A stretch of DNA of 64,000 nucleotides from Longimicrobiales bacterium (GCA_036381195.1 DASVDH010000078.1:10250-74249); one strand, 5' to 3'. Numbered from the stretch's first letter, positions 19,616 to 57,282 are shown. Made by a program: numbers and translations. The notes: a model not told the origin generated them from the sequence alone.

Positions 19616-19631
19616 GGGCACGTGTCTTGCT
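19616..19631 (+). promoter_or_regulatory. candidate sigma-54 (-24/-12) promoter for the deacetylase-FemAB-DegT-GT operon
   Basis: Plus strand reads GGGCACG-TGTC-TTGCT against consensus TGGCACG-N4-TTGCW, with only the first base deviating. Predicted TSS is near 19643, followed by AGGAG at 19654-19658. Confidence 0.65.
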
Positions 19632-27576: not shown

Positions 27577-27598
27577 CGAGGGATCTCGCTCCGCAGTC

Positions 27599-29293: not shown

Positions 29294-29669
29294 GACGGAG
29301 CCCTCGTGAGGAGAGCGCCCACCGGTCTGCCGTCCCGACCCGTCGGTCGGTTCGGCGAGAGCGACGCACGCCCTGGCGTCGCGGGGCAGGAGAAAAACGA
29401 GCGGCGCACGCCGGTGGCGGTGCCGGGCCGGCGCGGCCGCAGCCGCCGGGTCGCGTGCAAAGTCTGTGCACCCGGAGGGCATCGCCGGACGGGCGGGCCG
29501 AGGGCGGCAGGCACGCGGCGCGGCCGCGGGTTCGGCGCACCTGGCAGCCGGGGGGCTGTGGTCAGGCGGGGCAATGTGTAGCGCGGCCGCAACGCCGCGG
29601 CCGAGCCGGCGGCGGGCACGCCGGCGCCGGCGCGAGGGTCGCAGGCGAGCGGCCGGCGAACGCGTTGCG

Positions 29670-29685
29670 TGGTACTCGCCTTGCA
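29670..29685 (+). promoter_or_regulatory. candidate sigma-54 (-24/-12) promoter for the GT4/GT2 pair
   Basis: Plus strand reads TGGTAC-TCGCC-TTGCA, one mismatch to TGGCAC-N5-TTGCA. Predicted TSS is near 29697, only ~8 nt before ATG 29704. Confidence 0.6.
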
Positions 29686-29703
29686 ACTCCGCGGTGGGCT
29701 GGA

Positions 29704-37231: not shown

Positions 37232-38616
37232 GTCGAGCCGTCCCGGGTCCGAAGGGGCTCGCCGCCTGAACCGTGGGTTGCGGATGTGTCCACGGCAACG
37301 CCGGTACCGGCCGCCACGAGGTGCTCCGGCCAGCCGAGCACTTCCAGGTACTCGCGGACCAAGGCCCTGCCGACCACGTCCCAGCTATAGAGCTGCTCCA
37401 CCGTCCGCCGGCCGTTCGCGCCGAGACGGCGGCGCAGGCGCGGGTCGACCATCACCTGGCGGATCGCCTCGGCAAAGCTGCCCGGGTCATCGCGGATCAG
37501 GATGTTCTCACCGTCCACCGCGTGGAGCCCTTCGCACCCGACGCTGGTGCTGACCACGGCCTTCCCCATGGCCCACGCGGTGGTGATCTTCAGCCGGGTC
37601 CCGCCCCCGATGCGGAGCGGGACGATGGTGCAGAAGGCGTCACGCACCCATGGACGTACGTCATCGACGTAGCCCGTCAACTCGACGGAGTGCCGCGCCC
37701 GATAGTGGGCGATCTGCTCGGGGCTGGCGCGCCCGATCCAGCGAACGGGGACGGAACGCCCATCGCGCCGCAAGATCGGCAGGATCTCCCCGCAGAAGTA
37801 CTCGAGCGCGTCGAGGTTGGGAAACCACTCGGTTCCGCCGAGGTAGGCGATGAGCTCGTCCGTGCCGTCCAACGGGACGTATTCGGCGATGTCGACGCCG
37901 TTCGGCGCCACCGTGATGCGCGCGCCCGGGGCGATGCGGAGGAGCCCATCCCGGTCCGCATCGGAGACGGCAACGTTGATCGCCGCCGAGCGGCACCAGC
38001 GCATCTCCTCCGATTCGGTGAGCGCGGCCTGGAGCCGCAGATACCAGGATCGAAGACCCGTCCCGTTCTGTGCACGGCGCCGCAGCAGCTCGGATTCCAC
38101 GTTGTGGTGTGTGCAGGCCACGGGGACGCGGTCGAGGAGCGGGAGGTAGGCAGAGAGGTCCGAGCTGTCCACGTGGACGATATCGAAGCGCTCCGAGCGG
38201 AGCAGCTCGAGCAGACGGCGCCGATACGGTCTCGCATCGTAGGCGAAGCGCGTGTACGCCCTGCCCGACGCGAGGCTCCGGAGGTGGTCCCAGAGGAAGC
38301 GGAGCCGGCTGTGCTCCTGGGGGATCGGGAAGGCTTCGACCCGGGCGATGCCGGAGAGAGCCGCGAGGCTCGCGGACACCTGCGCTGCAGACCCGTGCGC
38401 CTTCACTCGGTAGAAGCAGAGGGCCGTCACGTCGAAGGCGGCCGCGAGCTGGCGGAGCACGTTGTAGGTGCGGATCGCTGCGCCGCTGCTCGGCGGGTAC
38501 GGCAGGGCGTGCGACAGGAAGAGGAGCTTCGGCTTTGCCATGTGCGGTGCGGCCGCCACGGGTTCGCTCACGGCGAGCGACTCGCCAGCGGAACGTCCCA
38601 GCCGTGACCGGTTCAT
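37228..38616 (-). CDS. glycosyltransferase, GT4 type resembling the PEP-CTERM/XrtA-associated TIGR03087-like family
   Basis: KPKLLFLSHALPYPPSSGAAIRTYNVLRQLA, compared with the R-I-P-Y-P-P-x-K-G-D-K-I-R signature as I remember it. ATG 38616 overlaps the asnB stop (ATGA). An alternative start is ATG 38541. Confidence 0.75.
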   Translation of the reverse strand: MNRSRLGRSAGESLAVSEPVAAAPHMAKPKLLFLSHALPYPPSSGAAIRTYNVLRQLAAAFDVTALCFYRVKAHGSAAQVSASLAALSGIARVEAFPIPQEHSRLRFLWDHLRSLASGRAYTRFAYDARPYRRRLLELLRSERFDIVHVDSSDLSAYLPLLDRVPVACTHHNVESELLRRRAQNGTGLRSWYLRLQAALTESEEMRWCRSAAINVAVSDADRDGLLRIAPGARITVAPNGVDIAEYVPLDGTDELIAYLGGTEWFPNLDALEYFCGEILPILRRDGRSVPVRWIGRASPEQIAHYRARHSVELTGYVDDVRPWVRDAFCTIVPLRIGGGTRLKITTAWAMGKAVVSTSVGCEGLHAVDGENILIRDDPGSFAEAIRQVMVDPRLRRRLGANGRRTVEQLYSWDVVGRALVREYLEVLGWPEHLVAAGTGVAVDTSATHGSGGEPLRTRDGST

Positions 38617-40565
38617 GCCAGCCATCGATACCGCCATGCCTGGAACATCAAGACGGCCCAGAGCCCAATCGCGAGCTGGTCATGGCCATCCTGCAGCGCG
38701 GCCCAGGCGCGATGGACGCTGACGCCGCGGAGGATGCCGTCCCGATCCAGGGCGTCACGGTCGAGGAGGTCCTCGGCCCACGGTCGCAGCGCGCCGCGCA
38801 GCCACGTGGCGATCGGCACCGAGAACCCCATCTTGGGGCGATCCACCAGCTCCTGCGGCACGCGACGGTAGAGCGCCTGGCGCAAGAGCCACTTCCCCTG
38901 GCGCCCGCGGATCTTGAGGTTGCGGGGCAAACACCAGGAGAACTCGATGATGCGGTGATCGAGCAGAGGGACGCGGACCTCCAGGCTGACCGCCATGCTC
39001 GCACGATCCACCTTGGCCAGCAGGTCGTCGGGGAGGTACATCGCCTGGTCCGTCAGCATCATCCGTTCGAGCAGCGGAAACGCCGCGCCCGCCTCGAACG
39101 CCCGGTCCACGGGACTCGGCTGCGACTCGCCGCAACGCAGGATCCGGCCGGGCTCCTGCCACGCGCTGAGCAGTGAGCGGTACATCTCGAGCGGCGAGTC
39201 CCAGCTCATCAAGGCCCCGAACTTGACGATCTTCTCGCCGGGCAGCCGGTGGCGCGCTGCCACCGGGAGTACGGGACTGACCGAGCGGTAGAGCCGGTCC
39301 CAGGAGCGGGACGAGACGCGGCCGATGCCGGCCGCGACGACGCGCCGGAGCGGCCTGGGCATCCGTTGCAGCCCCCCGATCGCCTGCTCTCCCTGGATGT
39401 AGCGGTGGTAGCCCGCGAAGACCTCGTCACCGCCATCGCCTGAAAGCGCCACGGTCACGCTCCGTCGCGCGAGCTGGGACACCAGGAAGGTCGGGATCTG
39501 CGAGGGATCCGCGTGCGGCTCGTCGAAGATGTCGGGCAGCCGCGGGACCACGGCGCGCGCGTCTTCGTCCGTCAGCACGAGCTGCGTATGATCGGTGCCC
39601 ACGTACGCGGCGACCCGCGCCGCAGCCGGCGCCTCGTCGTAATCCGGGTGATCGAATCCGATGGAGAACGTCCTGACCGGGCGCGACGAGAGACTCTGCG
39701 CGACGGCGGTCACCGTCGAGGAATCGATCCCGCCCGAGAGGAGCGTGCCCAGGGGGACATCCGACAGCAGGCGCAGGCGCACCGAATCCGTGAGGAGCGC
39801 ATCGAACTCCTCGAGCGCCTCCATCTCCGTGCCCCTGAACGGAGCGGCACGTCCGCGCGCAGCCGCATCGACCAGCGACCAGTACGGCCGTGACGCGGGG
39901 AGCGGCTCGTCCACCGAGCGGACCGTCAAGATGTGGCCGGGGGGCAGCTTCGAGGCGTCGGCGTAGATCGTCCTGGGTGCGGGGACGTACAGGTACCGTA
40001 GGTACGCCGCCAGCGCAGCGGTGTCGAGCTCACGATCGAATTCAGGGCCCTCGACCAGGGACTTGAGCTCGGATCCGAACGTCAGGATGCCGGGTTGCCA
40101 CGAGATGTAGAGGGGCTTGATCCCGAGGCGGTCCCGCAGCAGGAAGATCTCACGGGTGGCGGCATCCCAGACGGCCATCGCGAACATCCCGATGAAGCGG
40201 TGGACTGCGGGCTCGACGCCCCAACGCTCGAACGCCGCCAGGATCGTCTCCGTATCCGAGTGGCCGCGAAAACGGAAGCCGGCTCCCTCGAGCTCCGTGC
40301 GGAGGGCCCGGTGGTTGTACACCTCGCCGTTGAAAACCAGAGTGTAGCGCCCGGAAGGCGAGCGCATCGGCTGGCGGCCGTTCGCCGAGAGATCGAGGAT
40401 GGCGAGTCGCCGGAAACCCAGCGCGATGCCGGCCTCGGCATCCGCCCAGACCCCTTCGTCATCGGGACCGCGGTGCGCGATGGGCGCGATCATCCGCCGC
40501 ACCGCCGCCTCCAGCCCAGCGCGCTCGTATCCTCGAGTCGAGACTATTCCCGCAAAGCCACACAT
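38613..40565 (-). CDS. asnB: asparagine synthase (glutamine-hydrolysing) family amidotransferase
   Basis: The ATG at 40565 gives MCGFAGIV.... HRGPDDEG, FNGEVYN and the PP-loop LSGGIDSS are present. Confidence 0.9.
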   Translation of the reverse strand: MCGFAGIVSTRGYERAGLEAAVRRMIAPIAHRGPDDEGVWADAEAGIALGFRRLAILDLSANGRQPMRSPSGRYTLVFNGEVYNHRALRTELEGAGFRFRGHSDTETILAAFERWGVEPAVHRFIGMFAMAVWDAATREIFLLRDRLGIKPLYISWQPGILTFGSELKSLVEGPEFDRELDTAALAAYLRYLYVPAPRTIYADASKLPPGHILTVRSVDEPLPASRPYWSLVDAAARGRAAPFRGTEMEALEEFDALLTDSVRLRLLSDVPLGTLLSGGIDSSTVTAVAQSLSSRPVRTFSIGFDHPDYDEAPAAARVAAYVGTDHTQLVLTDEDARAVVPRLPDIFDEPHADPSQIPTFLVSQLARRSVTVALSGDGGDEVFAGYHRYIQGEQAIGGLQRMPRPLRRVVAAGIGRVSSRSWDRLYRSVSPVLPVAARHRLPGEKIVKFGALMSWDSPLEMYRSLLSAWQEPGRILRCGESQPSPVDRAFEAGAAFPLLERMMLTDQAMYLPDDLLAKVDRASMAVSLEVRVPLLDHRIIEFSWCLPRNLKIRGRQGKWLLRQALYRRVPQELVDRPKMGFSVPIATWLRGALRPWAEDLLDRDALDRDGILRGVSVHRAWAALQDGHDQLAIGLWAVLMFQAWRYRWLA

Positions 40566-40706
40566 CTCGGGCCTCGTGACAGCGCACGCGTTCGACGCGG
40601 TGGCACCACCACCGAGGGGTCCCGAAGGGGCGCGCAGCGGATGACCGCGCTCCACTCCGGCAACGCCACGTGCGCCGTTGGCCGGCCGCCTCCCGCGGCG
40701 TGTTGG

Positions 40707-41510
40707 CTAGAACGCGAGCGAAGTCGGAGCCAGCGCCCCGTCGACGCTCTGGGATTCGAGGTCGAGCAGGGCCACCTGGGGCTGGTCGTAGAAGCCACGG
40801 AGCAGATTGCCGCGGATCACCAGCAGATCGCGGGCCATGCGGAGCGAATCGAGCGCGAGATTGACGCGCGAGCCGGGCTTGTGCGTCCAGTTGACCGGAA
40901 CCTCCGTGACCCGGTACCCGGCCCGGCGCGCCATCAGCAGCACCTCGACATCGAAGCTGAAGCCGTTCATCCGCATGCGCGAGAAAAGGTCGTGCGCGAC
41001 CGAGTCGCGGAACAGCTTGAAGCCGCACTGCGTGTCGGCAATGCCGCCGACGGCCAGGGTTCGCACCAGGAGATGGAAGGCCCGGCCGATGACGCGCCGG
41101 TACAGGCGCGCCCGCACCTCCACTCCCGACGCCCGCAGGGCGCGGGAGCCGATGGCAATGTCGGCCCCCGCATCGATCGCCGCCTCCAGGCGCTCGAGCT
41201 CGGCGATGGGCGTCGCGCCGTCCGCGTCGGCGAACAGGACCAGCCGCCCCGTGGCGTTGACGACGCCCACCCGCACCGCGTAGCCCTTGCCGCGGTTGCC
41301 GGGCAGCCGGAACAGGCGGATCTCGGGGTAACCCCGCGCCAGTCGCGCGACCAGAGCACTCGTGCCGTCCCGACTCCCATCATCGACCACCAGGATCTCG
41401 GCGGCGCGGCGCCGTTCCCGGAAATACGAGACGGTCTCGCGAAGCGTGGGCTCCAGCCGTGCTTCTTCGTTGAACGCGGGAATGATGACGGAGAGCTCGG
41501 GTCGCAACAC
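40707..41510 (-). CDS. GT2 glycosyltransferase, DPM1/ALG5/GtrB-like (polyprenol-phosphate sugar synthase candidate)
   Basis: GTG 41510 is preceded by AGAGGA, 5 nt upstream. LSVIIPAFNEEARL, ILVVDDGSRDGT and LFADADGATP motifs. No C-terminal TM. Confidence 0.8.
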   Translation of the reverse strand: MLRPELSVIIPAFNEEARLEPTLRETVSYFRERRRAAEILVVDDGSRDGTSALVARLARGYPEIRLFRLPGNRGKGYAVRVGVVNATGRLVLFADADGATPIAELERLEAAIDAGADIAIGSRALRASGVEVRARLYRRVIGRAFHLLVRTLAVGGIADTQCGFKLFRDSVAHDLFSRMRMNGFSFDVEVLLMARRAGYRVTEVPVNWTHKPGSRVNLALDSLRMARDLLVIRGNLLRGFYDQPQVALLDLESQSVDGALAPTSLAF

Positions 41511-41545
41511 GTTGATCCTCTTCGGTTGTAGTCGGCCCCGCCACG

Positions 41546-41561
41546 GGCAAGTCTGATACCA
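41546..41561 (-). promoter_or_regulatory. candidate sigma-54 (-24/-12) promoter internal to the long minus-strand gene array
   Basis: Minus strand reads TGGTAT-CAGAC-TTGCC. GG and GC have exact spacing. Predicted TSS is near 41534, about 25 nt before GTG 41510, with an AGAGGA Shine-Dalgarno in between. Confidence 0.5.
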
Positions 41562-41680
41562 GCAGGGGGAGGGGCGGTGTCGGTGCGGACGGGAGCCCGA
41601 GGCGCCGCGAGGGGCTGGCCGCCGCCGCCGGGCCCCCACATCTGTAGTGGGCCCGCCACAGCACCCCCGTCGGCGGCGGC

Positions 41681-43174
41681 TCAGCCATCCCCGAGGGGGG
41701 GCCCGCACAGGTGGAGGTCGACGCGGTACACGCGGTAATCGAACCGTGGGCGTTGGTGCGAGTGAGTCAGGCGGCAGTGCCGGTCGAGCCAGGGGGCGAC
41801 CTCGCCGGAGCCATCGAAGGCGAGGCCCTCGCGCCGGACCAGGGCCACCACCCAGAAGGGGGATCCGCCCGCAAGCATTTCATCGAGCTGGGCCGTGTTC
41901 ATTTTCAGCTCGCGGCCATCGAGCTCGGGCGCGTAATGCCGCTGGAAGATGATCGGCGTCGTGAGGACCGGGAGCTCCGGCGCTGTCCCGGCGATCACGC
42001 GGAACGCGGGCCGCGGATCGAACCGCATCCCATCCGACAGGTGGGAGACGAGGGATGGCGCGAGGCCCGCGCCGATGACCGCCATCACCGCCGCCGCCAG
42101 CAGGCCCCGCCGCTCGACGGCCCGTTCCGCCACGAGATGGATCAGGCCGCCGGCAGAGACGAACACCATGGGCAACATGACGACGGCGTAGTCCGCGTAG
42201 ACGTTCGTCACGGCGGAAGCGGCGAGCAGCGCCGCGAGCGTGCTCACCCCACCACTGATGGCAAGGACGGCCCACCGGCGCTGCCGGGCGCTCGACGCGA
42301 GGGGCAGGAGGGCGAGTGCGCCGGCCGCCGCGGCCGCGACCAGCACGGGGGTCAACCATTCGACGATGGCCGGCAAGAGCCGGAGCGTCGCCTCCAGACC
42401 CCGGCCGCTGAAGTTCCGCAGAGAAGAGCCGCGTCCCAACAGGGACAGGGTCAGGTAGCCCGCGCCCGCGATCGCCGCGAACGGCAGCCAGAGCGCCGAC
42501 CACGCCGCCCGGGACGGCCACGCCCAGCCCAGCCGGCCGGACCGCCCGACCAGCACCGTCGCGAGGGCCACGCCCGCCACCGGGAACAGGAAGGTCGGGT
42601 GGGTGGCCGTGCCCAACACCAGGGCCACGAGCGCGGCGAGGTAGTCGCGCGGCCGATCGGTGTCCCAGGCGCGGATCAGGAAGAGCAGGAAGAGCGCGGA
42701 CAGGAGATAGAGCAGCGACCCGTACCGCGCCATTCCCGAGACGTGGAGATGCCAGGGCGCCAGCGCCACCCAGAGCGCGGCGGCGATGGCGCCGAGCCGG
42801 CCGAAGAGCTCGGCCCCGAGCTTCCAGGTGACGTAGATGCCCAGGATGCCGAACAGGAGCGGCAGCAGCCGCATCCCCACGTGGTTGGGAGGCACCCACT
42901 CGAAGAGCACGTGCTGCAGGAGGTAGTAGAGCGGACGCGCCTCGATCCCGGGCCGGAGGGGCGAATCGAACAGGCGCGTCGCCTCGATGACCGTATAGAG
43001 CTCGTCCTCCTCGAACGGGTAGGAGCCGAGGCCGTAGAGCCGCAGGAGGATCCCCAAGCCGAGCACGAGTGCCGGCAGCATTGCGCCCCCGCCGATGCGG
43101 CCTGCCGGCTGCCCGGGTACGGCGGATCGTGTCGCGGCACTCTGTTTCGCCCGAACCAAAAAGGAGGCAACCAT
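41681..43174 (-). CDS. GT-C (ArnT/PMT, GT39/83)-like membrane glycosyltransferase
   Basis: ATG 43174 (the ORF track uses TTG 43180). LRLYGLGSYPFEEDELYTV is the ArnT/PMT-type first-loop acidic motif. Polytopic, with a C-terminal soluble domain ending ...YRVYRVDLHLC. Confidence 0.7.
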   Translation of the reverse strand: MVASFLVRAKQSAATRSAVPGQPAGRIGGGAMLPALVLGLGILLRLYGLGSYPFEEDELYTVIEATRLFDSPLRPGIEARPLYYLLQHVLFEWVPPNHVGMRLLPLLFGILGIYVTWKLGAELFGRLGAIAAALWVALAPWHLHVSGMARYGSLLYLLSALFLLFLIRAWDTDRPRDYLAALVALVLGTATHPTFLFPVAGVALATVLVGRSGRLGWAWPSRAAWSALWLPFAAIAGAGYLTLSLLGRGSSLRNFSGRGLEATLRLLPAIVEWLTPVLVAAAAAGALALLPLASSARQRRWAVLAISGGVSTLAALLAASAVTNVYADYAVVMLPMVFVSAGGLIHLVAERAVERRGLLAAAVMAVIGAGLAPSLVSHLSDGMRFDPRPAFRVIAGTAPELPVLTTPIIFQRHYAPELDGRELKMNTAQLDEMLAGGSPFWVVALVRREGLAFDGSGEVAPWLDRHCRLTHSHQRPRFDYRVYRVDLHLCGPPLGDG

Positions 43175-43307
43175 GCTCAAGAACTCTCAGGAGCCGCGCG
43201 ACACGCTCACCCGCCGTACCCGCGGTGCCAGCGCAGGGATCGCCTGTGCCGCCCGCCCCGCGCTGCAGATCGCGGGCTCGGAGACGTACAGAGCGTAGCC
43301 GAGCGAG

Positions 43308-44480
43308 TCATCGGTTGACGGCGCTCGAGAGAGCGCCGCGGCGTGGGCGAATCGTCCGTTCTCGCGCCACCCGATACGCTCGCTCATACTCGTTCGCCAT
43401 GGCCTCAATGCTGAACGCCTCCTCCGCGCGCCTCCGCGCCTCGTTGCCGATAGCCCGACGAAGGGCCTCGTCGCGCAGCAGGCGAGCGAGCGCCGTGGCG
43501 AGGCCATCCGGGTCTCCGGGAGGCACGAGCAGCCCCTCCTCCTCATGCGTGATCACCTCGGGGATGCCCCCCACGGCCGAGGCGACGATCGCCTTCCCAG
43601 CGAACATCGCCTCCAGCATCGCCATCGGCAGACCCTCTGAGAGCGAGGGCATGGCGAAGATGTCCGCAGCGGCCAGGAGATCGGGCACGTCCGTCCGGAA
43701 CCCCAGGAGGTGCAGGCGGTCCGAGAGGCCGTGCTCCTCGGCGAATCGCCGCAGGGCGGGGCCCTCACCGCCGGCCGTGCCCCCGAAGCCGTCGGTGCCG
43801 GCGATTGCCAGGCGCCATTTCAGCTCGGGATGGAGCTCCCGCAGCACGGCGAGTGCCTTGAGCAGGACGAGGTGGCCTTTCACCGGATAGAGGTTCCCCA
43901 CGGCGACGATCACGGATTCATCGTGTGTCGCGCCGAGCTCGCGGCGCACCCCATCGCCATGAGCCCCGGGCACGAACCGGATGCCGTTGCGAACGACGTG
44001 AATCCCGCCCCTCGGCTCGCCGAGCGTTGCCAGGAGCTCTGCCCGGCTCGCCTCCGAGACAGCGACAACGCCGCCACTGTGCCTGAACGCCCATCGGAGA
44101 GCCATTCTCCTCCGCCTCGCCCCGAGGGCGTGCTTGCCTCCATGCATCGTGACCACGGACCCGATTCGCGTCACGCGCGCCGCCGCCGTACCGTACACCG
44201 CCATTGTGAACTCGTGGCAGTGCGCGACTTCGATGCTCCGCTGGCGAAAGATTCGGACGAGGTCGCGGAGGCATCCCAGATCGAGCGGCCGCCTCAAGCT
44301 GAAAGACTCGGTGTCGAATCCCGCTTTCCGGAACTCGCCCCCGAGCCAGCCGCAGCCGTTCGCGGGACCGATGAAGCAAATCGAGTGACCCCGGCGGCGG
44401 AGCTCCTCGGCGAGCTGGAGCACCATCATCTCCGCACCGCCGGGACCATCACTCTCGAGGAGGAGGGCAACCCGTCGCAT
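43308..44480 (-). CDS. glycosyltransferase, GT4/group-1 type
   Basis: MRRVALLLESDGPGGAEMMVLQLAEEL.... IFAMPSLSEGLPMAMLEAMFAGKAIVASAVGGIPEVI. Confidence 0.85.
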   Translation of the reverse strand: MRRVALLLESDGPGGAEMMVLQLAEELRRRGHSICFIGPANGCGWLGGEFRKAGFDTESFSLRRPLDLGCLRDLVRIFRQRSIEVAHCHEFTMAVYGTAAARVTRIGSVVTMHGGKHALGARRRRMALRWAFRHSGGVVAVSEASRAELLATLGEPRGGIHVVRNGIRFVPGAHGDGVRRELGATHDESVIVAVGNLYPVKGHLVLLKALAVLRELHPELKWRLAIAGTDGFGGTAGGEGPALRRFAEEHGLSDRLHLLGFRTDVPDLLAAADIFAMPSLSEGLPMAMLEAMFAGKAIVASAVGGIPEVITHEEEGLLVPPGDPDGLATALARLLRDEALRRAIGNEARRRAEEAFSIEAMANEYERAYRVARERTIRPRRGALSSAVNR

Positions 44481-44481
44481 C

Positions 44482-45561
44482 TCAGTGCGCGCGAACTCGA
44501 TGAGTCATCAGCCTTTTCACCTTGTGCAACGAACGCAGGACCGGGACCGGGAGCAGGCTGGCGGCATACAATCCCAGAGAATAGAGTGAGACAGCCGCTC
44601 CAGTCTCCCATGCTCGCGCGATGGCGACCCGGGCAGCACCACGGTCCAGTGTGGAAAGGTGTGCATAAGCCAGCCGGAGCAACAATCTCTGCTGCCCTTC
44701 TTCAAACGCTTTGCGTTCAGCCGCGGTCGGATTGGCACGCAATGCCAGCGCGCGCCGGCCGCTTTCCAGCGCTCCCAGGATCAAGGACGCCGTGTTTGAC
44801 GGTGAGGTCAGCGCGTCACCCTGCCCCATCCGATAATCCACGAGGGGGGTCATGATCATTGCCGCCGGGAATCTCGCGGCGACGCGGTGAAAGAACTCCG
44901 TTTCCTCGGCCTTGCGGAAGGCCTCATCGAAAAGCCCGACGCGCTCGATCACGCGGCGATGCAGGATCGCCGCCGAGGGGAGGACGAAGTTTCCATGGAA
45001 CAGCAGCTCGAAGACATCGCCCACGAACACGGTATGCGACCCGGCAGCGGCCTGCATTGAAACGCGCTCGAGTCGCGACTCGAAGAGCGCCTCCGGGGAG
45101 AGGCCGAGAGCGTCGAAGATCGGAAAGACCTGCCGGAGCCCGTCGGCGGGTCGGAGCTGGGCGCCGTGCTCGTCGATGACGTCGCACGCGCAGGTGCACC
45201 ACCCGGCCGTGGGGAACTTTTGCAAGGCCGCAAGCTGCGTCTCCAGCTTGGTGGCGTGCCAGACATCATCGGAATCCAGCAGCGCGACGTATTCCCCTTT
45301 GGCCTCCCGAAGGCCGCGGTTCCTGGCCGCGGAGACGCCGGCGTTTTCCTGCCGGACATATCGTACCGGCTCCGGAAGCGACATACAGATGGCGGCGGTG
45401 TCATCCACCGACCCATCGTCGACAATGATCACCTCGGCAGGCCGGTGCGTTTGCGCCAGGACGGAGCGAACCGCCGCCTCCAGGTACGCCGCGCGATTAT
45501 AGGTCGGGATGATCACACTGACGGCGGGCTCGTCGTAGTCGAGATTCGGGGCTGTGCGCAT
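44482..45561 (-). CDS. glycosyltransferase family 2
   Basis: VSVIIPTYNRAAYL, IIVDDGSVDDT and LLDSDDVW motifs. Start is ATG 45561, or TTG 45600 as in the ORF track. Ends 1 nt before the next gene. Confidence 0.85.
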   Translation of the reverse strand: MRTAPNLDYDEPAVSVIIPTYNRAAYLEAAVRSVLAQTHRPAEVIIVDDGSVDDTAAICMSLPEPVRYVRQENAGVSAARNRGLREAKGEYVALLDSDDVWHATKLETQLAALQKFPTAGWCTCACDVIDEHGAQLRPADGLRQVFPIFDALGLSPEALFESRLERVSMQAAAGSHTVFVGDVFELLFHGNFVLPSAAILHRRVIERVGLFDEAFRKAEETEFFHRVAARFPAAMIMTPLVDYRMGQGDALTSPSNTASLILGALESGRRALALRANPTAAERKAFEEGQQRLLLRLAYAHLSTLDRGAARVAIARAWETGAAVSLYSLGLYAASLLPVPVLRSLHKVKRLMTHRVRAH

Positions 45562-46015
45562 AAAGGGTTCCGGGAGGTGACGCTTCGGGGCACTGGCCAA
45601 CAGCAGCGGAGTGCAAGGTCCGAGCTAAGGGTAACGGGAGGCGGCCACCTCGAATTCGGGCCGGGCCTTCTGCGATCCGGGCCACTTGGCGCCTTCCGCC
45701 CGCACCTGCGGGATTGTGGGATTGACGCCACACGCGGTGGCCCAGGTGCAGCGGTATGGGCCGGCGGTCGTTGCGTCCAACGGTGCTCCGTACCGCGAAA
45801 GGCCTGGGCGGATCAGGGAAGAGATACCTGGGAGATATCAGGCCGGGTGGCTGGCGCGGGCGGGCCGGCGCCGGCATCCATGTTTCCGTAGGAGCCGAGG
45901 CCATGGACCCGCAGGGCAGCGTCCAGCTCGAGCGCGAGCGCGGGGAGGGTGGCACCCCGGGCCCTCCTCCGAGGCGACCGCGGCGCCGCGGCCAGCGGCG
46001 GCAGCAGAGTTTCCG

Positions 46016-47716
46016 TCATCGGCGTGGGGAACGGGCAGCGATGCTGCGGATCGTGAACGTCCCCACGGAGCGCGACGACGGTTCGACCGGAAAGGCGGCG
46101 AGGGCGGCGATGACCCGATCCGGCCCGTATCCGGCCGCGGCGAGGGCCTTCCATGGGTTCTGTTTCGGGGGAACGTCGTAGATGGAGACGATGTCGACCC
46201 GGCCGCCGCCCTCGAGCGCCTGGCGGATGCGGGCGGCGAGGGTGTCCAGTCCCTCCGGCGCAGGATAGCGATCGGCGAGGGAGGTGACCGAAAGCCTGCG
46301 CGTGCGGTCCGGACCGTCGACGAAGAAGAGGAGCTGGTCCACCTCGTCGTAGCCCGGGTAGATCACGAGGTCCGCGCCGGCCAGGGCGTGCTCGAGGAGC
46401 GCGACGCGTTCGGCCCGTGGGTACAGGACGCGGTTTTTCACCATGTCGAGCGCGTTCCAGCCCAGCGTCAGGAGCACGAGGGCGAGGATCGCCGCAAGCC
46501 GACGCCCCCGCAGACGGATTCCCGTCAGCAGGGCCCCCATCGCGATGCCGAGCTGGAAGTAGAACTGGTCGTCCGAGTTGTTCCAGTAGACCGCGAACGT
46601 GAACACCGCGATGCCGATGCCGGCCGCGAGGAGGGGAGCGATCCCCCTCGTTCCGGGCGCGTCCGGATCCGGGGCCACCAGGGAATCGCGGAGCGCGAGC
46701 ACGAGCACGAGAACCCCCGCCAGGCAAAAGGCCAGCGGAGCCAATGACGCGGGCGTCAGCGTCCTGCCATCCCGGATCGCCTCGACCACGGGGGCGAGAT
46801 CGACGATGCTGCTGAGCGAGCCGTACACTGCCCGGGCTGTTGAAACGGTGATCGCGCGGACCGAGAGGTCCGCGCCGTAACCCGCCGCCAGCAGGCCGGG
46901 GGATGCATCGCCACCATAGCTGGTGATCCACGAAACCGGCCCCACCTCTGACGGGCCGACCACGGCCCACGCCGCAATGAGCCCTGCGAGCGCCGTGAGG
47001 ACCGCCCCCAGGCCCAGGCCGGCCGCGATCTGGACGACTCGCCGCACCTCGCGCCGCAGGGCGTACCGCATCCCGATGACGCCGGCAATTGCGAGCGGAA
47101 TCAGGATGTTCGAGATGTAGGCCAGTGCAGCCGCTCCTCCGACCAGGCCAGCAAACACCGCCAGCATCCAGCTCGGGCGCGCCACGTAGGCGACCACCAG
47201 CGCTGCCACACCGGCCAGGAACGGCATCTGGAGCATGTGGATCTCATCCGAGATCCAGAGGCGCGAGAACGCCGACCCCAGCGCAACCCACGCGGTGGCG
47301 AGGTTTGCTTCCAGCCGACCGGGGGCCAGGGGGCCGGCGACACGCCAACGAAAGATGCCGAGCGCAGCCGCACCGCACACGATGCTCAGCCATTTCAGCC
47401 GGTCGGGAGCCGGGCGCGCCGAGCCCAGCCCCGCCGTCACCGCCTGCCACCAGCTCCCCACGGGCTCCAGCAGCAGGTGATTCGGGTTCCACGTCCAGGT
47501 GCCGCGGGTGAACGTCGCGCTGTGCGCGAGACCATCCCCGGAAACGAAGCCGATCGGCACGACGCACAGCACCAGAGCCGGTACGACGAGCCAGAGCAGC
47601 GCGTCTATACGATCGGCTCCGCTTCGTCCGAGCGCTCGGCCGGCAGGCCCAATCGCATGCACGGGCGTGCCCGGCGCGGGGGCAATCGCCTGAGGCTTGG
47701 AATCAGGGGGCACCAT
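46016..47716 (-). CDS. uncharacterised polytopic membrane protein with C-terminal soluble domain (GT-C-like layout)
   Basis: 566 aa with many hydrophobic helices through ~aa 430. The soluble tail runs ...LVIYPGYDEVDQLLFFVDGPD...FTIRSIAARS. No family recognised. Confidence 0.6.
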   Translation of the reverse strand: MVPPDSKPQAIAPAPGTPVHAIGPAGRALGRSGADRIDALLWLVVPALVLCVVPIGFVSGDGLAHSATFTRGTWTWNPNHLLLEPVGSWWQAVTAGLGSARPAPDRLKWLSIVCGAAALGIFRWRVAGPLAPGRLEANLATAWVALGSAFSRLWISDEIHMLQMPFLAGVAALVVAYVARPSWMLAVFAGLVGGAAALAYISNILIPLAIAGVIGMRYALRREVRRVVQIAAGLGLGAVLTALAGLIAAWAVVGPSEVGPVSWITSYGGDASPGLLAAGYGADLSVRAITVSTARAVYGSLSSIVDLAPVVEAIRDGRTLTPASLAPLAFCLAGVLVLVLALRDSLVAPDPDAPGTRGIAPLLAAGIGIAVFTFAVYWNNSDDQFYFQLGIAMGALLTGIRLRGRRLAAILALVLLTLGWNALDMVKNRVLYPRAERVALLEHALAGADLVIYPGYDEVDQLLFFVDGPDRTRRLSVTSLADRYPAPEGLDTLAARIRQALEGGGRVDIVSIYDVPPKQNPWKALAAAGYGPDRVIAALAAFPVEPSSRSVGTFTIRSIAARSPRR

Positions 47717-47758
47717 TGCGTTGGGGCAATCGGGTCTTGAGGCAGGGCCGCTGGGCGT

Positions 47759-47774
47759 TGCAAGAACGGGGCCA
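47759..47774 (-). promoter_or_regulatory. candidate sigma-54 (-24/-12) promoter
   Basis: Minus strand reads TGGCCC-CGTTC-TTGCA, one mismatch to consensus. It lies in the 111-bp gap. Predicted TSS is near 47747, about 30 nt before ATG 47716. Confidence 0.55.
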
Positions 47775-47827
47775 ACCGACGACGGCCCGGCTATGGCGGG
47801 GCTTCGGGCCGGAGCCCCCTCTTGCCG

Positions 47828-49384
47828 TTACGGCGGAAGCGGCTCCGATTCCCGGCCAGGAACAACCCGGTACAGCGTGACCTCGCCTTTGTGCGCCACG
47901 GGCTCGGCGTGTTCCATGATCAGCGCGCTCGCCCGTGGATCATCTCCCGCTTCTACGATGAACTCGTACTGGGCGAGAATGCGGTCCCAAGCGAGCGGGC
48001 TGTATTGCCTCGTGCCCCAGTCGTCGCCCGGATGGTAGAGGCGATCCGGCACCCAGAAATGGAGGAGCTGCTGCCCGTTCCCGTTACCGGAGAAGAGGTT
48101 GGGAGCACGACCCTGCCGCTTGATCGTATGCCAGTGAGCGAAGTGGCGGTAAGCCGGGATTCGGCCGTGCCGGCGCTGATCCGAGACCAGCGGTAGCACG
48201 TTCGACCGGGCGGGGAGCAAGTCCAGTACGGCAGCCATGTCCGCCAGCTCCCGATCGATGACGACGGCGCGATGCCCTATGACGGCAGCGTGCACCAGGC
48301 ATCCGAGAAACGGCAGCAACAAGAAGACGCGCCTCGGCGGCGACTCGCGAGCAGGACAGCAGAAGATCAGGAGCAGGCCGGGAAGGAGGAAGCGGACATC
48401 GACATCCTCCGCGCCCATGAACGTCGCCGGAAACACCAGATAGGCGATAAAAAGGCCGGCCGTAGCGAGCGCGAGGGAATCCCGCTTCCGCTGGAAGCGG
48501 TGCCAGACGCCAAACAGGAGGACTGACGCGAAATAGGTGCCTGCCATGAGCGCGGCCTGCGCGGGCGAAAAGGAGTAGAACGGCGCGAACACGTGGGTCG
48601 CCTTGCTCAAGGCGCCGCGCATCTCGGTCGTGTACGCGGGCAAGGGAGCGCCTGGCGCGTAAGCTTTGGCAGCCAACCACGCGCTGCCGACCGCCAGCGT
48701 GACCGCCACTGTCGCCCAGGTCCGTTGGTCGCGGATCGCTCGCCGGACGTGGAGCTCCCCCGAGCCGAGGTGGAGCGCTGTATCCGTCCACGCCACGATC
48801 AGGGCGACGGCGGCGGCGGAGAGGTGCACGAAGTAGAGCGCCAGGGCGCCTACCGCCAGCAAGAGGCCGGCTGCGGCCGATGGGTGCGTGCGGTATCGCC
48901 ACCATCCCGCGATCCACAGCATGGCCAGACCAACGCCCACGGCATAGCTGACGAATCCGATGAGGAAGAACCAGTTGAACGCGAGCAGCGCTCCGATCAG
49001 GGCCCACCCGCGTGCGGCCGGCGCCTTGGCCCGGAGGAGCAAGTACATGGCGACAGGGGTGAGATTCACGGCCACGAGAGACAGCACTCGTTGCGCAGCG
49101 AGCGGCGGCATCAGCCCGACCAGGATCGCGCCCACTGCATCCATGCCCAGATAGGCGGTGGGAACGAATCGGAACTCGGCAGGAAACGGTGGCGGTTCTC
49201 CTCCCCAGATCTGCGCCAGCAGGACGTATCGGGCCAGGTGGTTGGTCGCATCCGTGTACGGGAAGTACTGCACCGTCAGCACGACGGCGGTGTTGGCCGC
49301 GATGGCGATTCCCAGGAGCAGCGCCTCCCGGGAAAGCATGCGGTGTCGGCCCCCATCCGCTCTCGTCGAGTTCCAGGATGGCAT
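47828..49384 (-). CDS. uncharacterised polytopic membrane protein with C-terminal soluble domain (GT-C-like layout)
   Basis: ATG 49384 is preceded by AGGAG, 7 nt upstream. 518 aa with hydrophobic helices through ~aa 370. The soluble tail ends ...KGEVTLYRVVPGRE. No family recognised. Confidence 0.65.
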   Translation of the reverse strand: MPSWNSTRADGGRHRMLSREALLLGIAIAANTAVVLTVQYFPYTDATNHLARYVLLAQIWGGEPPPFPAEFRFVPTAYLGMDAVGAILVGLMPPLAAQRVLSLVAVNLTPVAMYLLLRAKAPAARGWALIGALLAFNWFFLIGFVSYAVGVGLAMLWIAGWWRYRTHPSAAAGLLLAVGALALYFVHLSAAAVALIVAWTDTALHLGSGELHVRRAIRDQRTWATVAVTLAVGSAWLAAKAYAPGAPLPAYTTEMRGALSKATHVFAPFYSFSPAQAALMAGTYFASVLLFGVWHRFQRKRDSLALATAGLFIAYLVFPATFMGAEDVDVRFLLPGLLLIFCCPARESPPRRVFLLLPFLGCLVHAAVIGHRAVVIDRELADMAAVLDLLPARSNVLPLVSDQRRHGRIPAYRHFAHWHTIKRQGRAPNLFSGNGNGQQLLHFWVPDRLYHPGDDWGTRQYSPLAWDRILAQYEFIVEAGDDPRASALIMEHAEPVAHKGEVTLYRVVPGRESEPLPP

Positions 49385-49683
49385 GGCGTCGCTCCTGATG
49401 TCCCCGTGCTAGCGGCCGGGACTCCTCGCGCATCCTCGAGGCGGGAGGGGAGGGGGATACGCTCAACAGCCCAAGAGGGCGAGGCCGCCACTCGAGCCCA
49501 GCGGACGGAGTGAACCGCCCTCAACCGGAGGAGCGCCGTCGCCGGATCCGCGCCGCCCAAGATATGGCCAGCGATCGGGGCTGTCGAGGCAATCCTGAGC
49601 AGTCCGTGATCCGCTGGATGCCTTCTCGCAGGCCGGGAGACGCCACGCGCTCGGCGCGGGCGAAGTGGGATGCACACAGAAAC

Positions 49684-49715
49684 GGGGCCAGCCGCACATG
49701 TCGGCGGCTGGCCCC
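49684..49715 (-). terminator. intrinsic-terminator-like hairpin downstream of the Big_2 lipoprotein gene
   Basis: 12-bp perfect stem GGGGCCAGCCGC/GCGGCTGGCCCC with an 8-nt loop, 40 nt after the stop at 49756. On the minus strand it's followed by GTTTCTGTGTG. Confidence 0.6.
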
Positions 49716-49755
49716 ACGAAACCCGCGATTGAAAGCAGGGGTCGGAGGGCCCGGG

Positions 49756-52700
49756 TCAGTCCGGGGTCCAGATCACGATGTCCCAGATATACTCGACCTG
49801 GTCCATCCGCGGCGAATTGAAGACGGACGGCAGTGCAAATCCGCGGAAGCCCTGCACGTCCATCGCCGCGGTCGTGTCCATGATCTTGGTGCCGTTGACC
49901 CACGCCACGATGCGCCCGTCGCTTCGGCCCGGAGCCGTCGCGGCCTGGTAATACACGGTGATCGTCAGGTCCTCCGCGATGTGGTCCTCCGGGAACCAGT
50001 TTGCGTACCTCGCCACCCCCTCGGTATCCAGGCGCACGCTGAACCGCGACGGCGCCGGACCGCCCCAGATCACGTCGGTTCTGCCGTCGTTCCCGGCATC
50101 ACCACCCGTCGACGGGTCACCCCGGCCCATGATCGTCATCTTGCGCCCCGCGTTCCCGCCCGTACCGCAGTTCGGGTTCGTGATCGCGAATTCGTTCACC
50201 GCGCCGAAGGAGGTGTTCGTATCGGCGGGGTGGCGGCCCATTCGCATCTTCCATTGCATGTAGATGCGCCTGGGGGAGCTGCCCTGCTGCTCGCCTGCGA
50301 AGACGTGCGCGATCTTGTGCGTTTGCTCGGAACAGGTCCCGCCCCAGCCCCGCCATTCGATGCGATAGGCGTTCGTGCCCCGGCCATTGAAATTGCGACT
50401 GAACTTGATGCCGGACGTGTACTCGAGGCCAGCGATCGCTTGCTGGAGCGACGTAGCGCTCTGGAGCGATGCCCGCGTATCGAACAGGATGCGGTCACCC
50501 TGTCCTGGCTGCGGATCCCCGCCCTGAGAGGGCCGCGTCACGGTAATGGTCGCACTCCCGCTCTTCCCCTCGCTCCTGGCGGTGATCGTGGCAGTCCCTT
50601 CCCCCACGCCCCGGACGAGCCCGCCGGACGTCACCGTGGCCACGCCGGTGTTGGAGCTGGACCACTCCACGGCGCGGCCGTTGAGCGTGTTCCCGCTCTC
50701 GTCCTTCAGCGTCGCCGTGAGCTGGAGCGTGCCGTCGACCGGGATCGTCCCGGAGGACGGCGAGACCGTGACCGTGGCCACGGGCGCCGGCCCGCTTCCG
50801 CCGCCGCCGGAGCCGCCGCCGCAGCCGATCCGCTGTGTGCTGACGACCAGGTTATCGAAGTAGCGCTCCTGTTGCCGCGGCGCTCCGTTGTTCCAGTAGT
50901 TTTCCAGGAACAGGGCGTTGATCCCGTAGGCGCTGTAATTGCCCACCCAGTTCAGGTTCGTCGCGCGTGCCTCGAGCTGCCCGTCGATCCACAGCTCGAA
51001 CACCCCGTTGCTCTGCCCGGGGTCGTTCACCCGCACGTGGGATTCGATGCAGTGCCATTCTCCGACATGCGCGGCGTCGAAGATCGGCGTGCTGCTCGTC
51101 TGCGCGCCCAGCCAGCGCAGGTTGCCGAAGTCGTTGTACCCGGTCGTGCGGACGTTGCCCTGCTCGTCCGTGCCCGATGCAGGATCGAGCACCAGGTAGT
51201 TGTTCCCGCTGCCGCCGCTCCAGACGTGGGCGATGAGCGCCTCCGACCAGTCCTCGCGCGCGAAGATGATCGCACGGGCCAGCTTGTCCCCGCCGCCTCC
51301 GCTCCAGTCGGGCGCGTTGCGGAGGTAGACCCGCCAGTAGATGTCCCGATAGTTGGCGGTGCCGGCATCGACCGGCCGCATGTAGGACGACGGTGTCTTT
51401 CCGAATGCGAGCTTCAGGTTCCCCGCGTTGACCTGGCCGGCGCTGAACCGGGCCCGCATCCCCCCCGAACCATCGATCCCCACGCCCGCCGCGCGCACGA
51501 AGGCGCCGCCGCGCTCGTCGTACTCGAAGTACTGGCTGAGGCGGTCCTGATCGAAGTCGTCGCACCAGATCCAGCCGTCGCCCGGTTGGGAGCACTCGTT
51601 GACGAGGCTCGCGCTGCCGCCGCCTCCACCGCCGCCACCACCACCGCTCACCGTGATGTGCGCTTCCGCGCTCTGGTCCCCGCTCTCGGCCCTGATGGTC
51701 GCCTCGCCGGGGGCGACCCCCCGCACCAGGCCGGTTTCGTCAACCGCGGCGATGGCTTCGTCGGAAGACCTCCAGGCGATCTCCGCCCCCGGGATGGGGT
51801 TGCCGTTGGCATCGGCCGCGGTGGCGGTCAGTTGGAGGGTCTCGCCGACGCCGACCGTGCCCGTATCGCGGTCGAGCGACAACGAGGCCACGACCTGCCG
51901 CACCTCGATGCCGGCGGTGTCCGCCTCGCCACAGCAGACGGCCGTGGCGACGATCAGTGCGGTCCCGACGGCTTTGGCCGTGACTCTGCCCATGGTGTCC
52001 ACCGTTGCAATGTGTGAATCAAGGGAGGTCCACACGATCCGGACGCCGGACACGACCGAGCCGTCTGCCGTGTAGGCGGTGGCTCCAAGTTGCAATGTAG
52101 CGCCGATGGCGTCCAGGGTGCCCGTGTGGGGTGTGATCTCGACTCGCGCGACCGCCGCCTCCTGCCGGACCGCGACGGTCACGGTGTCCGCAATGTCTCC
52201 GGCCGACGCGACGATCTTCGCGTCCCCGCTCTGATGGGCCGTGGCGAGGCCGCTCTCGTCGATCGAGACGACGGCCGGCGCCAGGGAAGCCCAGCTCACC
52301 GCGACGTCGGGGATCTCGTGCCCGTTGCGGTCCCGGGCGATCGCCACGAAACGGAGCGTGTCGCCGAGCTCCACGACCACCTCTTCCGGGGGCTCGCCGT
52401 CCGGAGACGTGCCCGCCGGGAGCGCCGACAGGGAGGCGACCTTCTGGCGGACGGTGATGGTCGCGGTGTCCGCGAGAGAGCTCACGGATGCCTCGATCCG
52501 GGCTGTTCCGACCGCTTCCGCCCGGACCAGACCGTCCGGGCTGACGGTCGCGATCTCCGGGTCGAGACTGCGCCACGAGATCTTCGCTCGTGGGCTCAAG
52601 AGTCCGTCCGCCGTCTCGAGTTCCGCCGAGAGACGGATCGTATCCCCCAACGCCTCCAGCTCGGCCGTGCTCGGTTCGAGCACGATCCGGAAGGCATCCG

Positions 52701-52791
52701 GATTCGACTCGATCAGATCTCCGAACTCGCAGGCGGAAGCCACGACCAGACCAACCGCCATCAGAAAGATCCCGGTCCCGCGCCTGAGCAT
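49756..52791 (-). CDS. large secreted lipoprotein: 5 Big_2 (bacterial Ig-like group 2) domains + two beta-jelly-roll (ConA/polysaccharide-lyase-like) domains
   Basis: ATG 52791 (GAGG 8 nt upstream) gives MLRRGTGIFLMAVGLVVASAC, a signal peptide plus lipobox. Four tandem ~85-aa repeats have the Big_2 pattern (...LxLxAxxxDxxGxxxxxxxVxWxSSDxxIATVxxxGxVxAxxxGxAxI...). Then come a poly-Gly linker, a ~230-aa jelly-roll-like domain, a GS linker, a fifth Big_2 and a second ~250-aa beta-rich domain. Confidence 0.8.
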   Translation of the reverse strand: MLRRGTGIFLMAVGLVVASACEFGDLIESNPDAFRIVLEPSTAELEALGDTIRLSAELETADGLLSPRAKISWRSLDPEIATVSPDGLVRAEAVGTARIEASVSSLADTATITVRQKVASLSALPAGTSPDGEPPEEVVVELGDTLRFVAIARDRNGHEIPDVAVSWASLAPAVVSIDESGLATAHQSGDAKIVASAGDIADTVTVAVRQEAAVARVEITPHTGTLDAIGATLQLGATAYTADGSVVSGVRIVWTSLDSHIATVDTMGRVTAKAVGTALIVATAVCCGEADTAGIEVRQVVASLSLDRDTGTVGVGETLQLTATAADANGNPIPGAEIAWRSSDEAIAAVDETGLVRGVAPGEATIRAESGDQSAEAHITVSGGGGGGGGGGSASLVNECSQPGDGWIWCDDFDQDRLSQYFEYDERGGAFVRAAGVGIDGSGGMRARFSAGQVNAGNLKLAFGKTPSSYMRPVDAGTANYRDIYWRVYLRNAPDWSGGGGDKLARAIIFAREDWSEALIAHVWSGGSGNNYLVLDPASGTDEQGNVRTTGYNDFGNLRWLGAQTSSTPIFDAAHVGEWHCIESHVRVNDPGQSNGVFELWIDGQLEARATNLNWVGNYSAYGINALFLENYWNNGAPRQQERYFDNLVVSTQRIGCGGGSGGGGSGPAPVATVTVSPSSGTIPVDGTLQLTATLKDESGNTLNGRAVEWSSSNTGVATVTSGGLVRGVGEGTATITARSEGKSGSATITVTRPSQGGDPQPGQGDRILFDTRASLQSATSLQQAIAGLEYTSGIKFSRNFNGRGTNAYRIEWRGWGGTCSEQTHKIAHVFAGEQQGSSPRRIYMQWKMRMGRHPADTNTSFGAVNEFAITNPNCGTGGNAGRKMTIMGRGDPSTGGDAGNDGRTDVIWGGPAPSRFSVRLDTEGVARYANWFPEDHIAEDLTITVYYQAATAPGRSDGRIVAWVNGTKIMDTTAAMDVQGFRGFALPSVFNSPRMDQVEYIWDIVIWTPD

Positions 52792-53001
52792 GCAGCTGCC
52801 TCGTTCGTCGCGATTGAACCAAAGACCACCGAGCGTGAATCCCCCGGAGGGCAAATCTCCGGATCACCGGCGGCCAAGCGGGCGTGGCGGGCGGGGAGCC
52901 CGCTGTAGCCCTCGACTCTGCGCTCCCGTCTTTCCGCGGGTTTGCTCTGAGCAACGACGATGGTGGGCTTTGGTCTTGTTCGCGGCTCGGTCGCCCGGAG
53001 C

Positions 53002-55731: not shown

Positions 55732-55735
<4 letters not shown>
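54614..55735 (-). CDS. soluble sensor histidine kinase (HisKA + HATPase_c)
   Basis: ATG 55735 overlaps the stop of the response-regulator gene (ATGA). H-box ELAHDLRSPLTSI, N-box LLNLTSNALKFT, G1 VRDTGNGI and G2 GTGLGLAI. No hydrophobic helix in the ~150-aa N-terminal region. Confidence 0.85.

Positions 55736-57282
<1,547 letters not shown>

Follow-up and report, generated by a model that had tools for sequence, protein, structure and literature searches.

Glycosyltransferases of the GT-C fold add sugars outside the cytoplasm and draw on lipid-linked donors, and adjacency to polyprenyl-phosphate sugar synthase/GtrA fusions is the classical hallmark of periplasmic glycosylation by three-component systems. 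Here we describe two genes, A (46016..47716) and B (47828..49384), both on the minus strand of a 64,000-nt stretch of DNA with 70% G+C (the window) from a metagenome-assembled genome (MAG) of Longimicrobiales (Gemmatimonadota). Judged from predicted structures, their products very probably are GT-C-fold integral-membrane proteins of two mutually unrelated families. The whole window (1-64000) is an exopolysaccharide (EPS) supercluster of the XrtA/PEP-CTERM type. The functionally closest described systems are the three-component systems of periplasmic glycosylation, i.e. GtrA/GtrB/GtrC, ArnC/ArnEF/ArnT, CsbB/GtcA/YfhO and GT136 (Kelly et al. 2024, PMC11127046). Like these, the locus combines a predicted GT-C fold, an extracytoplasmic loop following the first transmembrane helix (TM1) and, in the cluster, synthase-like GT2 genes with the setting of a polysaccharide locus; moreover, B homologues elsewhere adjoin GT2+GtrA fusions. 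In contrast to these systems, A and B lack detectable sequence similarity to GtrC, ArnT, YfhO or the Pfam GT-C families, a flippase of the GtrA, SMR or MATE kind was found beside neither gene, and the synthase genes in the window are not adjacent to them. A and B thus represent new sequence families within a well-known enzyme class and not a new type of system.

Both open reading frames (ORFs), of 566 and 518 amino acids (aa), had been put forward in a preliminary description of the window and are borne out by a coding-type codon composition, with a G+C content at third codon positions (GC3) of 0.84 for A and 0.81 for B compared to 0.54 and 0.49 at second positions (GC2). That description had called both proteins orphans of no recognised family. 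In line with the latter part, neither A nor B yields a significant match in Pfam or NCBIfam (the best for B being DUF6541 with E=0.58 and 8.8 bits, where the cut-off is 29), and a 100% identical NCBI record is titled "hypothetical protein VF192_11725". The term orphan is roughly adequate for A, for whose family a search of 5.8 billion sequences gives about 30 clusters, each of them unnamed and at least 37% identical, with none more distant; a second, word-indexed profile search added zero new members. For B it does not hold, as a profile built from ten sequences retrieved a very large, unnamed family of 7,461 representative clusters at E<=1e-3 (4,107 at E<=1e-10) from 1.84 billion representatives. 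A motif scan of 185,579 GTDB species genomes located A homologues at 37 loci, nearly all in Acidobacteriota MAGs (Thermoanaerobaculia, Holophagales), with a few in Gemmatimonadota. Occasional sub-threshold matches link members of the two families to PMT_2 (PF13231; 3 of 29 A-family members, best E=1.2e-4) and to PTPS_related (PF10131), DUF6541 (PF20176) or DUF6057 (some B-family members), whereas A and B of the window themselves reach no gathering threshold. A relationship between A and B was considered and rejected, given that BLASTP finds none and the comparison of the two families by hhalign gives a probability of at most 14%.

The fold assignment is based on AlphaFold2 (AF2) models computed from the family alignments. 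Their predicted local distance difference test (pLDDT) and template-modelling (pTM) scores are 89.6 and 0.89 for A and 94.2 and 0.94 for B. Searched against the PDB with Foldseek, every confident match of either model is a GT-C enzyme, with E-values from 2e-4 to 1e-2 and template-modelling scores (TM-scores) of 0.37-0.54. For A, the matches (probability ~1) are led by the C-mannosyltransferase DPY19 (7zlg, E=4.8e-4) and PglB (5ogl, 9.1e-4), further confident matches being STT3, AftA, ALG9, ALG12, EmbA/B, AftD, PimE and Pmt4; its query-normalised TM-scores to GT-C structures range from 0.37 to 0.46, while transporters outside the GT-C class reach a TM-score of only about 0.1 at a probability below 0.4. 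The B model matches PglB (3rce, E=2.4e-4), STT3, ArnT, Pmt4, EmbB, PimE, ALG3 and AftB, and unrelated transporters again trail at a TM-score near 0.1 and low probability. ArnT (GT83; 5ezm, 5f15) resembles B in fold (TM-scores 0.54 and 0.53), in size (~520-550 aa), in its periplasmic C-terminal domain and in an Asp that opens the first periplasmic loop, but it is only 12-14% identical with no profile match, possesses 13 transmembrane helices compared to the predicted 11, and uses lipid A as acceptor, which is not suggested here. PglB/STT3 (GT66) and DPY19 (GT98) give the lowest Foldseek E-values for B and A, respectively; unlike these enzymes, which are 10-12% identical, A and B lack the WWDYG, DK and MI motifs and carry much smaller C-terminal domains. 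Among the classes named in the preliminary description, i.e. a polymerase, a ligase or a GT-C subfamily, predicted structure, topology and motif placement speak for the GT-C option for both proteins.

Topology and motif placement agree with the models. AF2 secondary structure, hydropathy and family-level charge alternation all indicate about 11 transmembrane helices in each protein, and the family-averaged charge (K+R minus D+E) alternates cleanly loop by loop in both families. Taken together with the model helices, this alternation points to 11 transmembrane helices, a cytoplasmic N-terminus and a periplasmic alpha/beta C-terminal domain of about 130 residues. All invariant polar residues of A and B map to periplasmic loops, and in each protein an invariant Asp lies within 8 residues of TM1. 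The first extracytoplasmic loop (EL1) spans residues 59-102 in A (helices 60-71 and 83-96, invariant D61) and 38-93 in B (helices 45-60 and 79-91, invariant D45). In either protein EL1 carries a net negative charge and lies between positive cytoplasmic loops. Operationally, those GT-C enzymes that use lipid-linked donors are defined by a domain of 7-13 transmembrane helices whose first extracytoplasmic loop opens with an invariant carboxylate (PMC11127046). The helix count, the acidic residue in EL1 and the three-dimensional similarity, as seen in the predicted models, place A and B within this definition.

In A, G56, S59 and D61 are invariant, the latter within "VSGDG" directly after TM1. They are followed by an NPNHLL motif at residues 77-82 (P78, N79 and L81 invariant, N77 and L82 kept in at least 90% of the family), by the invariant M161-x-Q163-M164-P165 with E158 conserved in at least 90%, by the conserved periplasmic-loop residues R295, D306, R315 and D316, by W-N-N-S-D-D-Q-F-Y-F-Q at 378-388 (invariant W378-N380-S381-D382...F385-F387-Q388), and by the invariant pair P521-W522. 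In B, the family alignment shows D45, H187 and R331 to be invariant and P42, N48, H49, L50, R52, D82, G143, K261, P319, D329 and Y473 to be near-invariant. Hereof D45 lies within "PYTDxxNHLAR", again directly after TM1.

Based on fold, motif placement and genomic context, we infer donor, acceptor and catalytic roles as follows. We consider it moderately probable that A and B glycosylate EPS in the periplasm using undecaprenyl-phosphate-sugar donors. In this mechanism a cytoplasmic GT2 of the ArnC/GtrB/DPMS type, for which the genes at 22828-24887 and 40707-41708 are candidates, would load a sugar onto undecaprenyl phosphate, and the lipid-linked sugar would be flipped to the periplasmic face. 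A and B would then each transfer a sugar to a periplasmic acceptor, most likely the undecaprenyl-pyrophosphate-linked or nascent EPS of the XrtA/PEP-CTERM-type locus, thereby adding side-branch or terminal sugars. D61 of A and D45 of B may serve as catalytic or acceptor-activating carboxylate, and the lipid phosphate could be held by periplasmic basic or His residues (R52, H187, K261 and R331 in B; K108, R295 and R315 in A).

Several genomic neighbourhoods are in line with this proposal. We denote loci or contigs with homologues by L-numbers. On three independent Gemmatimonadota contigs (L001, L003/L036 and L009) A resides in an EPS locus of this kind together with a Big_2 protein gene and with orthologues of four further genes of the window, namely the PMT_2-like gene, the PpgS-like GT2 gene, the Wzy_C gene and the ATP-grasp gene; the GT2 protein encoded beside A in the Gemmatimonadota loci retains 65-96% identity. 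In L008, a B homologue situated in a polysaccharide locus is followed by a GT2+GtrA fusion, in L066 one is followed by an ArnC-like gene, and in L007 (10001-15299) two B paralogues flank a GT2+GtrA fusion. Elsewhere, no synthase-like GT2 gene lies within 10 kb of B in at least four further neighbourhoods, or within that distance of A in those Acidobacteriota loci that were examined. Paralogue pairs of the B family are common: besides L007, such pairs flank an NHL-repeat beta-propeller gene in L060 (9866-14564) and are convergent in L052 (1728-5960). B stands beside A only in the lineage of the window itself (L001, L002). A 495-aa membrane protein encoded upstream of A in L003 was considered as a relative of B and rejected, as it is the orthologue of the PMT_2-like gene of the window. 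The A-B pair thus does not form a conserved module, nor is either family restricted to EPS loci. This does not agree with the preliminary description, which had proposed a subfamily peculiar to such loci: outside polysaccharide loci lie several of the B homologues and, in Acidobacteriota, most of the A homologues.

A number of observations weigh against periplasmic EPS glycosylation by A and B. In Acidobacteriota, A is a lone gene mostly found outside glycan loci, and in 11 of these loci it directly follows nuoN-rex with no glycan genes within 10 kb (L004, L011, L020, L022, L023, L025, L027, L028, L038, L042 and L045; in L004 it overlaps rex by 4 nt). Likewise, B occurs in housekeeping contexts far from glycan genes in at least four other neighbourhoods. 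Since many A and B homologues are thus encoded outside glycan loci, EPS cannot be the family-wide acceptor. In the window itself, the clear ArnC-like synthases are encoded 22 kb away on the opposite strand, no rpoN gene was seen, and a scan of the window proteins with GtrA_DPMS_TM identified no GtrA-type flippase, small ORFs not having been scanned exhaustively. Finally, no profile method (Pfam, NCBIfam, PDB profiles, hhalign; CAZy was not searched directly) ties A or B significantly to a known GT-C family: sequence searches of the PDB with three family profiles gave chance matches only, and hhalign of either family against the PMT_2-like family of the locus gave probabilities below 10%. The GT-C assignment hence rests on predicted structures with modest TM-scores (0.4-0.54).

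Among the alternative explanations, we regard as unlikely that A and/or B belong to the protein-modifying GT-C enzymes (PMT, Pgf, PglB or DPY19 type) and would decorate secreted or surface proteins instead of the polysaccharide, with candidate targets such as the adjacent Big_2 lipoprotein or PEP-CTERM proteins. Protein glycosyltransferases are the top structural matches of both models (DPY19 and PglB/STT3 for A, PglB/STT3 for B); however, the Foldseek rank among GT-C families is blind to acceptor type at TM-scores of 0.4-0.5, the best TM-score of B is obtained with ArnT, a lipid-acceptor enzyme, and both proteins lack a WWDYG-type element of oligosaccharyltransferases or an MIR/TPR element of PMT enzymes. 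Genomic context lends this explanation some weight, as a protein with Big_2 repeats is encoded alongside A in the window and in L001, L003 and L009, the ArnC-like gene matches PgfS of a streptococcal protein-glycosylation system (E=2.4e-36), the NHL beta-propeller protein of L060 is encoded between two B paralogues, and many family members occur outside polysaccharide loci.

Distinctly unlikely is a role of A and B as chain builders, i.e. as processive or priming GT-C polymerases resembling Emb/Aft enzymes that assemble part of the polymer in the periplasm from polyprenyl-phosphate sugars. The locus already holds a full set of the Wzx/Wzy type (Bac_transf, many GT2 and GT4 genes, two Polysacc_synt genes, Wzy_C and a Wzc-like kinase), and the C-terminal domains of A and B, of about 130 aa, are not the large carbohydrate-binding modules of Emb and AftD. 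For chain building speak the confident structural matches to EmbA/B/C, AftA, AftB and AftD, and the presence of four GT-C candidates together with several lipid-sugar synthase-like genes, which exceeds the needs of a simple side-branch modification. It also appears improbable that A and/or B glycosylate exosortase/PEP-CTERM-handled proteins or the Big_2 lipoprotein as part of an XrtA GT-C protein-glycosylation branch, with A being a GT-C family restricted to Acidobacteriota and Gemmatimonadota and having a housekeeping target that would account for the nuoN-rex-A synteny in Acidobacteriota.

Very improbable is the possibility that one or both proteins are GT-C-derived but non-catalytic, acting for example as a scaffold or in association with a flippase, or transfer a group other than a sugar. 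A PMT_2-like protein of the locus weakly matches the model for "flippase activity-associated protein Agl23", and the activity of A and B is a prediction; yet the periplasmic Asp and several charged residues are strictly invariant across sequences that are 20-40% identical, and strict invariance at this divergence speaks for an active site that has been conserved. That A or B is an exosortase, a Wzy polymerase/O-antigen ligase or an acyltransferase_3 is effectively excluded: both span the membrane several times and are encoded in an EPS locus of the PEP-CTERM type, but neither matches a Pfam or NCBIfam model of EpsH/exosortase, Wzy or acyltransferase_3 even at E<=10, no such protein is among the Foldseek matches, the predicted fold is GT-C, and the window contains a separate Wzy_C gene. 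Clear HMM matches to these families, by which the preliminary description would have been refuted, do not occur.

The transcriptional arrangement of the two genes is as follows (see Table 1 for all coordinates). The preliminary description had noted a one-mismatch sigma-54 site and a small hairpin in the 111-bp gap between A and B, an AGGAG-N7-ATG start of B and an intrinsic terminator upstream of B, all of which are present. The sigma-54-type element TGGCCCCGTTCTTGCA matches 10/11 specified bases of TGGCAC-N5-TTGCW, with exact spacing and in the right orientation. It is conserved as TGGCCTCGTTCTTGCA in L001, a related contig that is 88-94% identical to the window locus, and is also kept in L002; in L009, where the A homologue leads an operon, TGGCAATCCAACTGCT is found 87 nt upstream. 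The window contains four such one-mismatch sites compared to 0.97 expected from shuffling, located at 19616-19631 (+), 28183-28198 (-), 29670-29685 (+) and 47759-47774 (-), all inside the EPS supercluster; at least two of them (19616 and 47759) immediately precede a gene start and are correctly oriented towards it. Several EPS operons may hence be under sigma-54 control by the PrsR-like activator at 55732-57282, which is also the candidate activator of the putative promoter at 47759-47774. The gene for this response regulator adjoins a histidine kinase gene.

The terminator lies 39 nt past the stop codon of the Big_2 gene and exceeds in strength, by a wide margin, all other terminator-like sites of the 60 kb scanned (the window except 40001-44000); in L001 its stem is kept and its loop changed. 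To judge from its sequence, it is predicted to insulate B from upstream transcription, so that B begins a unit. The only promoter candidate found for B is the weak sigma-70-like match at 49559..49587. The gap hairpin folds no better than shuffled sequences (z=-0.46) and has no U-tract, so that neither a structured RNA nor a terminator is indicated; in L001 the matching position is taken by a longer hairpin, and an Rfam search of 45500-50000 gave no match. The earlier proposal that the pair forms its own transcription unit is not supported. No terminator-like site lies between the stop of A (46016) and the next gene (45600), and A is followed by eleven co-directional genes with short gaps or overlaps down to 32167, i.e. 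over ~14 kb. The most economical reading is that the putative sigma-54 promoter serves A and this 14-kb co-directional EPS array; under that promoter reading, B would be a lineage-specific insertion that separates the Big_2 terminator from the sigma-54 promoter. In terms of the proposed mechanism, A, probably together with the 14 kb of EPS genes behind it, may be driven by the sigma-54 promoter under the PrsR-like activator, with the B unit starting behind the terminator.

The N-terminus of A warrants a separate remark. The NCBI gene call of 514 aa starts with a GTG at V53 and cuts off the conserved TM1, in whose region (47558-47716, minus strand) D38, W42, L50 and G56 are kept across the family. 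The call in L001 of 529 aa starts from an ATG that reads ATA in the window, and the ATG at 47716 is conserved in L001. We prefer the longer reading of 566 aa, because this ATG is conserved and the NCBI start loses the conserved TM1. The first ~26 residues are disordered, and the true start lies somewhere between codon 1 and about codon 19.

Table 1. Coordinates of genes A and B, of nearby non-coding elements and of further genes in the window
Feature	Coordinates	Strand	Remarks
Gene A	46016..47716	-	up to 566 aa; rare, predicted GT-C-fold membrane glycosyltransferase; 11 predicted transmembrane helices, periplasmic C-terminal domain (~431-566)
Gene B	47828..49384	-	518 aa; predicted GT-C-fold membrane glycosyltransferase; 11 predicted transmembrane helices, periplasmic C-terminal domain (~388-518)
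sigma-54-type -24/-12 element	47759..47774	-	TGGCCCCGTTCTTGCA; 43 nt upstream of A ATG
6-bp-stem hairpin	47798..47818	-	GGGGCT/AGCCCC; just past B stop, no U-tract
Shine-Dalgarno AGGAG	49392..49396	-	7 nt before B ATG; conserved in L001
Weak sigma-70-like match	49559..49587	-	TCGACA-17-TATCTT in the 370-bp B leader; 9/12 matches, not above shuffle expectation
Intrinsic terminator	49682..49717	-	after Big_2 gene; 14-bp stem (11 G-C pairs) followed by TTTCTGTG
Big_2 gene	49756-52854	-	upstream neighbour of B; 1,032-aa probable lipoprotein (signal ...LVVASAC)
sigma-54-dependent response regulator	55732..57282	-	PEP-CTERM-box PrsR-like; Sigma54_activat E=1.2e-66; TIGR02915 E=5.9e-111, below cut-off
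68-codon ORF	45813..46019	-	overlaps A stop (ATGA); L001 7637-7804; called as 55-aa gene in L001/L002
PMT_2-like GT-C	41681..43180	-	Pfam PMT_2 E=3e-9; third GT-C in the same co-directional array
GT2	40707..41708	-	best NCBIfam matches PpgS, ArnC and DPMS-type polyprenyl-phosphate sugar synthases, all sub-threshold
PMT_2-like GT-C candidate	27599-29734		second PMT_2-like gene in the window
Two tandem ArnC/GtrB-like polyprenyl-phosphate sugar synthases	22828-23853, 23850-24887	+	NF007986 E=2e-55 (8-292 of 316) and 2.7e-25
DegT/WecE/ArnB-like aminotransferase	21563-22831	+	precedes the ArnC-like pair
Three AsnB-like amidotransferases	1518-3500, 5581-7512, 38613-40655		
Two Wzx-like (Polysacc_synt) flippases	10420-12246, 26101-28062		
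Wzy_C gene	34726-36177		PF04932; distinct from A and B
GT4-like gene	32167-33507		in addition to stp1/stp2-like GT4 genes elsewhere in the window

Two XrtA-system genes of the supercluster pass their equivalog cut-offs, namely the polysaccharide deacetylase TIGR03006 (342.8 bits vs 276.2) and the FemAB-family TIGR03019 (294.6 vs 260.35), whereas no exosortase was found among the window genes scanned, including a search of 10 further genes. The window furthermore encodes an EpsB-like initiating transferase, a Wzc-like kinase, an ATP-grasp protein and a carbamoyltransferase. The ArnC-like gene at 22828-23853 scores below the 529-bit cut-off of the ArnC model despite its E-value; the pair shows a DGDxQND motif and two C-terminal transmembrane helices in addition to the PgfS match. 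Together with the preceding aminotransferase gene it forms an Arn-like trio (21563-24887, plus strand) with 4-nt overlaps, of which the second synthase is degenerate and has no Pfam GT2 match at 1e-4. By sequence similarity, the trio implies a putative lipid-linked amino-sugar donor for periplasmic transfer.

Besides its five Big_2 repeats, the Big_2 protein has poly-Gly linkers (GGGGGGGGGS) and a segment that weakly resembles polysaccharide lyase 14 (E=2.5e-5). The 68-codon ORF, conserved in L001/L002, is identical at 15/23 positions to residues 32-54 of the PMT_2-like GT-C of the window (TM1, "GLGSY"; BLASTP E=2e-6), and it is probably what a duplication or rearrangement has left of a PMT_2-like gene. 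An intact PMT_2-like gene adjoins A in L003. Two further genes, at 12253-13905 (+) and 15950-16927 (-), show good coding signal and have no Pfam or NCBIfam match.

Our literature search returned nothing on GT-C enzymes together with PEP-CTERM, nor on DUF6541. To a specialist, extra GT-C enzymes in a giant EPS locus will not be surprising, and the value of the present analysis lies in the annotation and in the flagging of two families. Two hypothetical proteins gain a testable functional class, one GT-C candidate family being very large and the other rare and confined to MAGs of Acidobacteriota and Gemmatimonadota. If activity is shown, each of the two would probably become a CAZy GT family in its own right, as was the case for GT136 (PMC11127046). 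As regards the organism, an EPS locus with four GT-C candidates and several lipid-sugar synthase-like genes suggests a heavy periplasmic, post-polymerisation decoration of the polymer.

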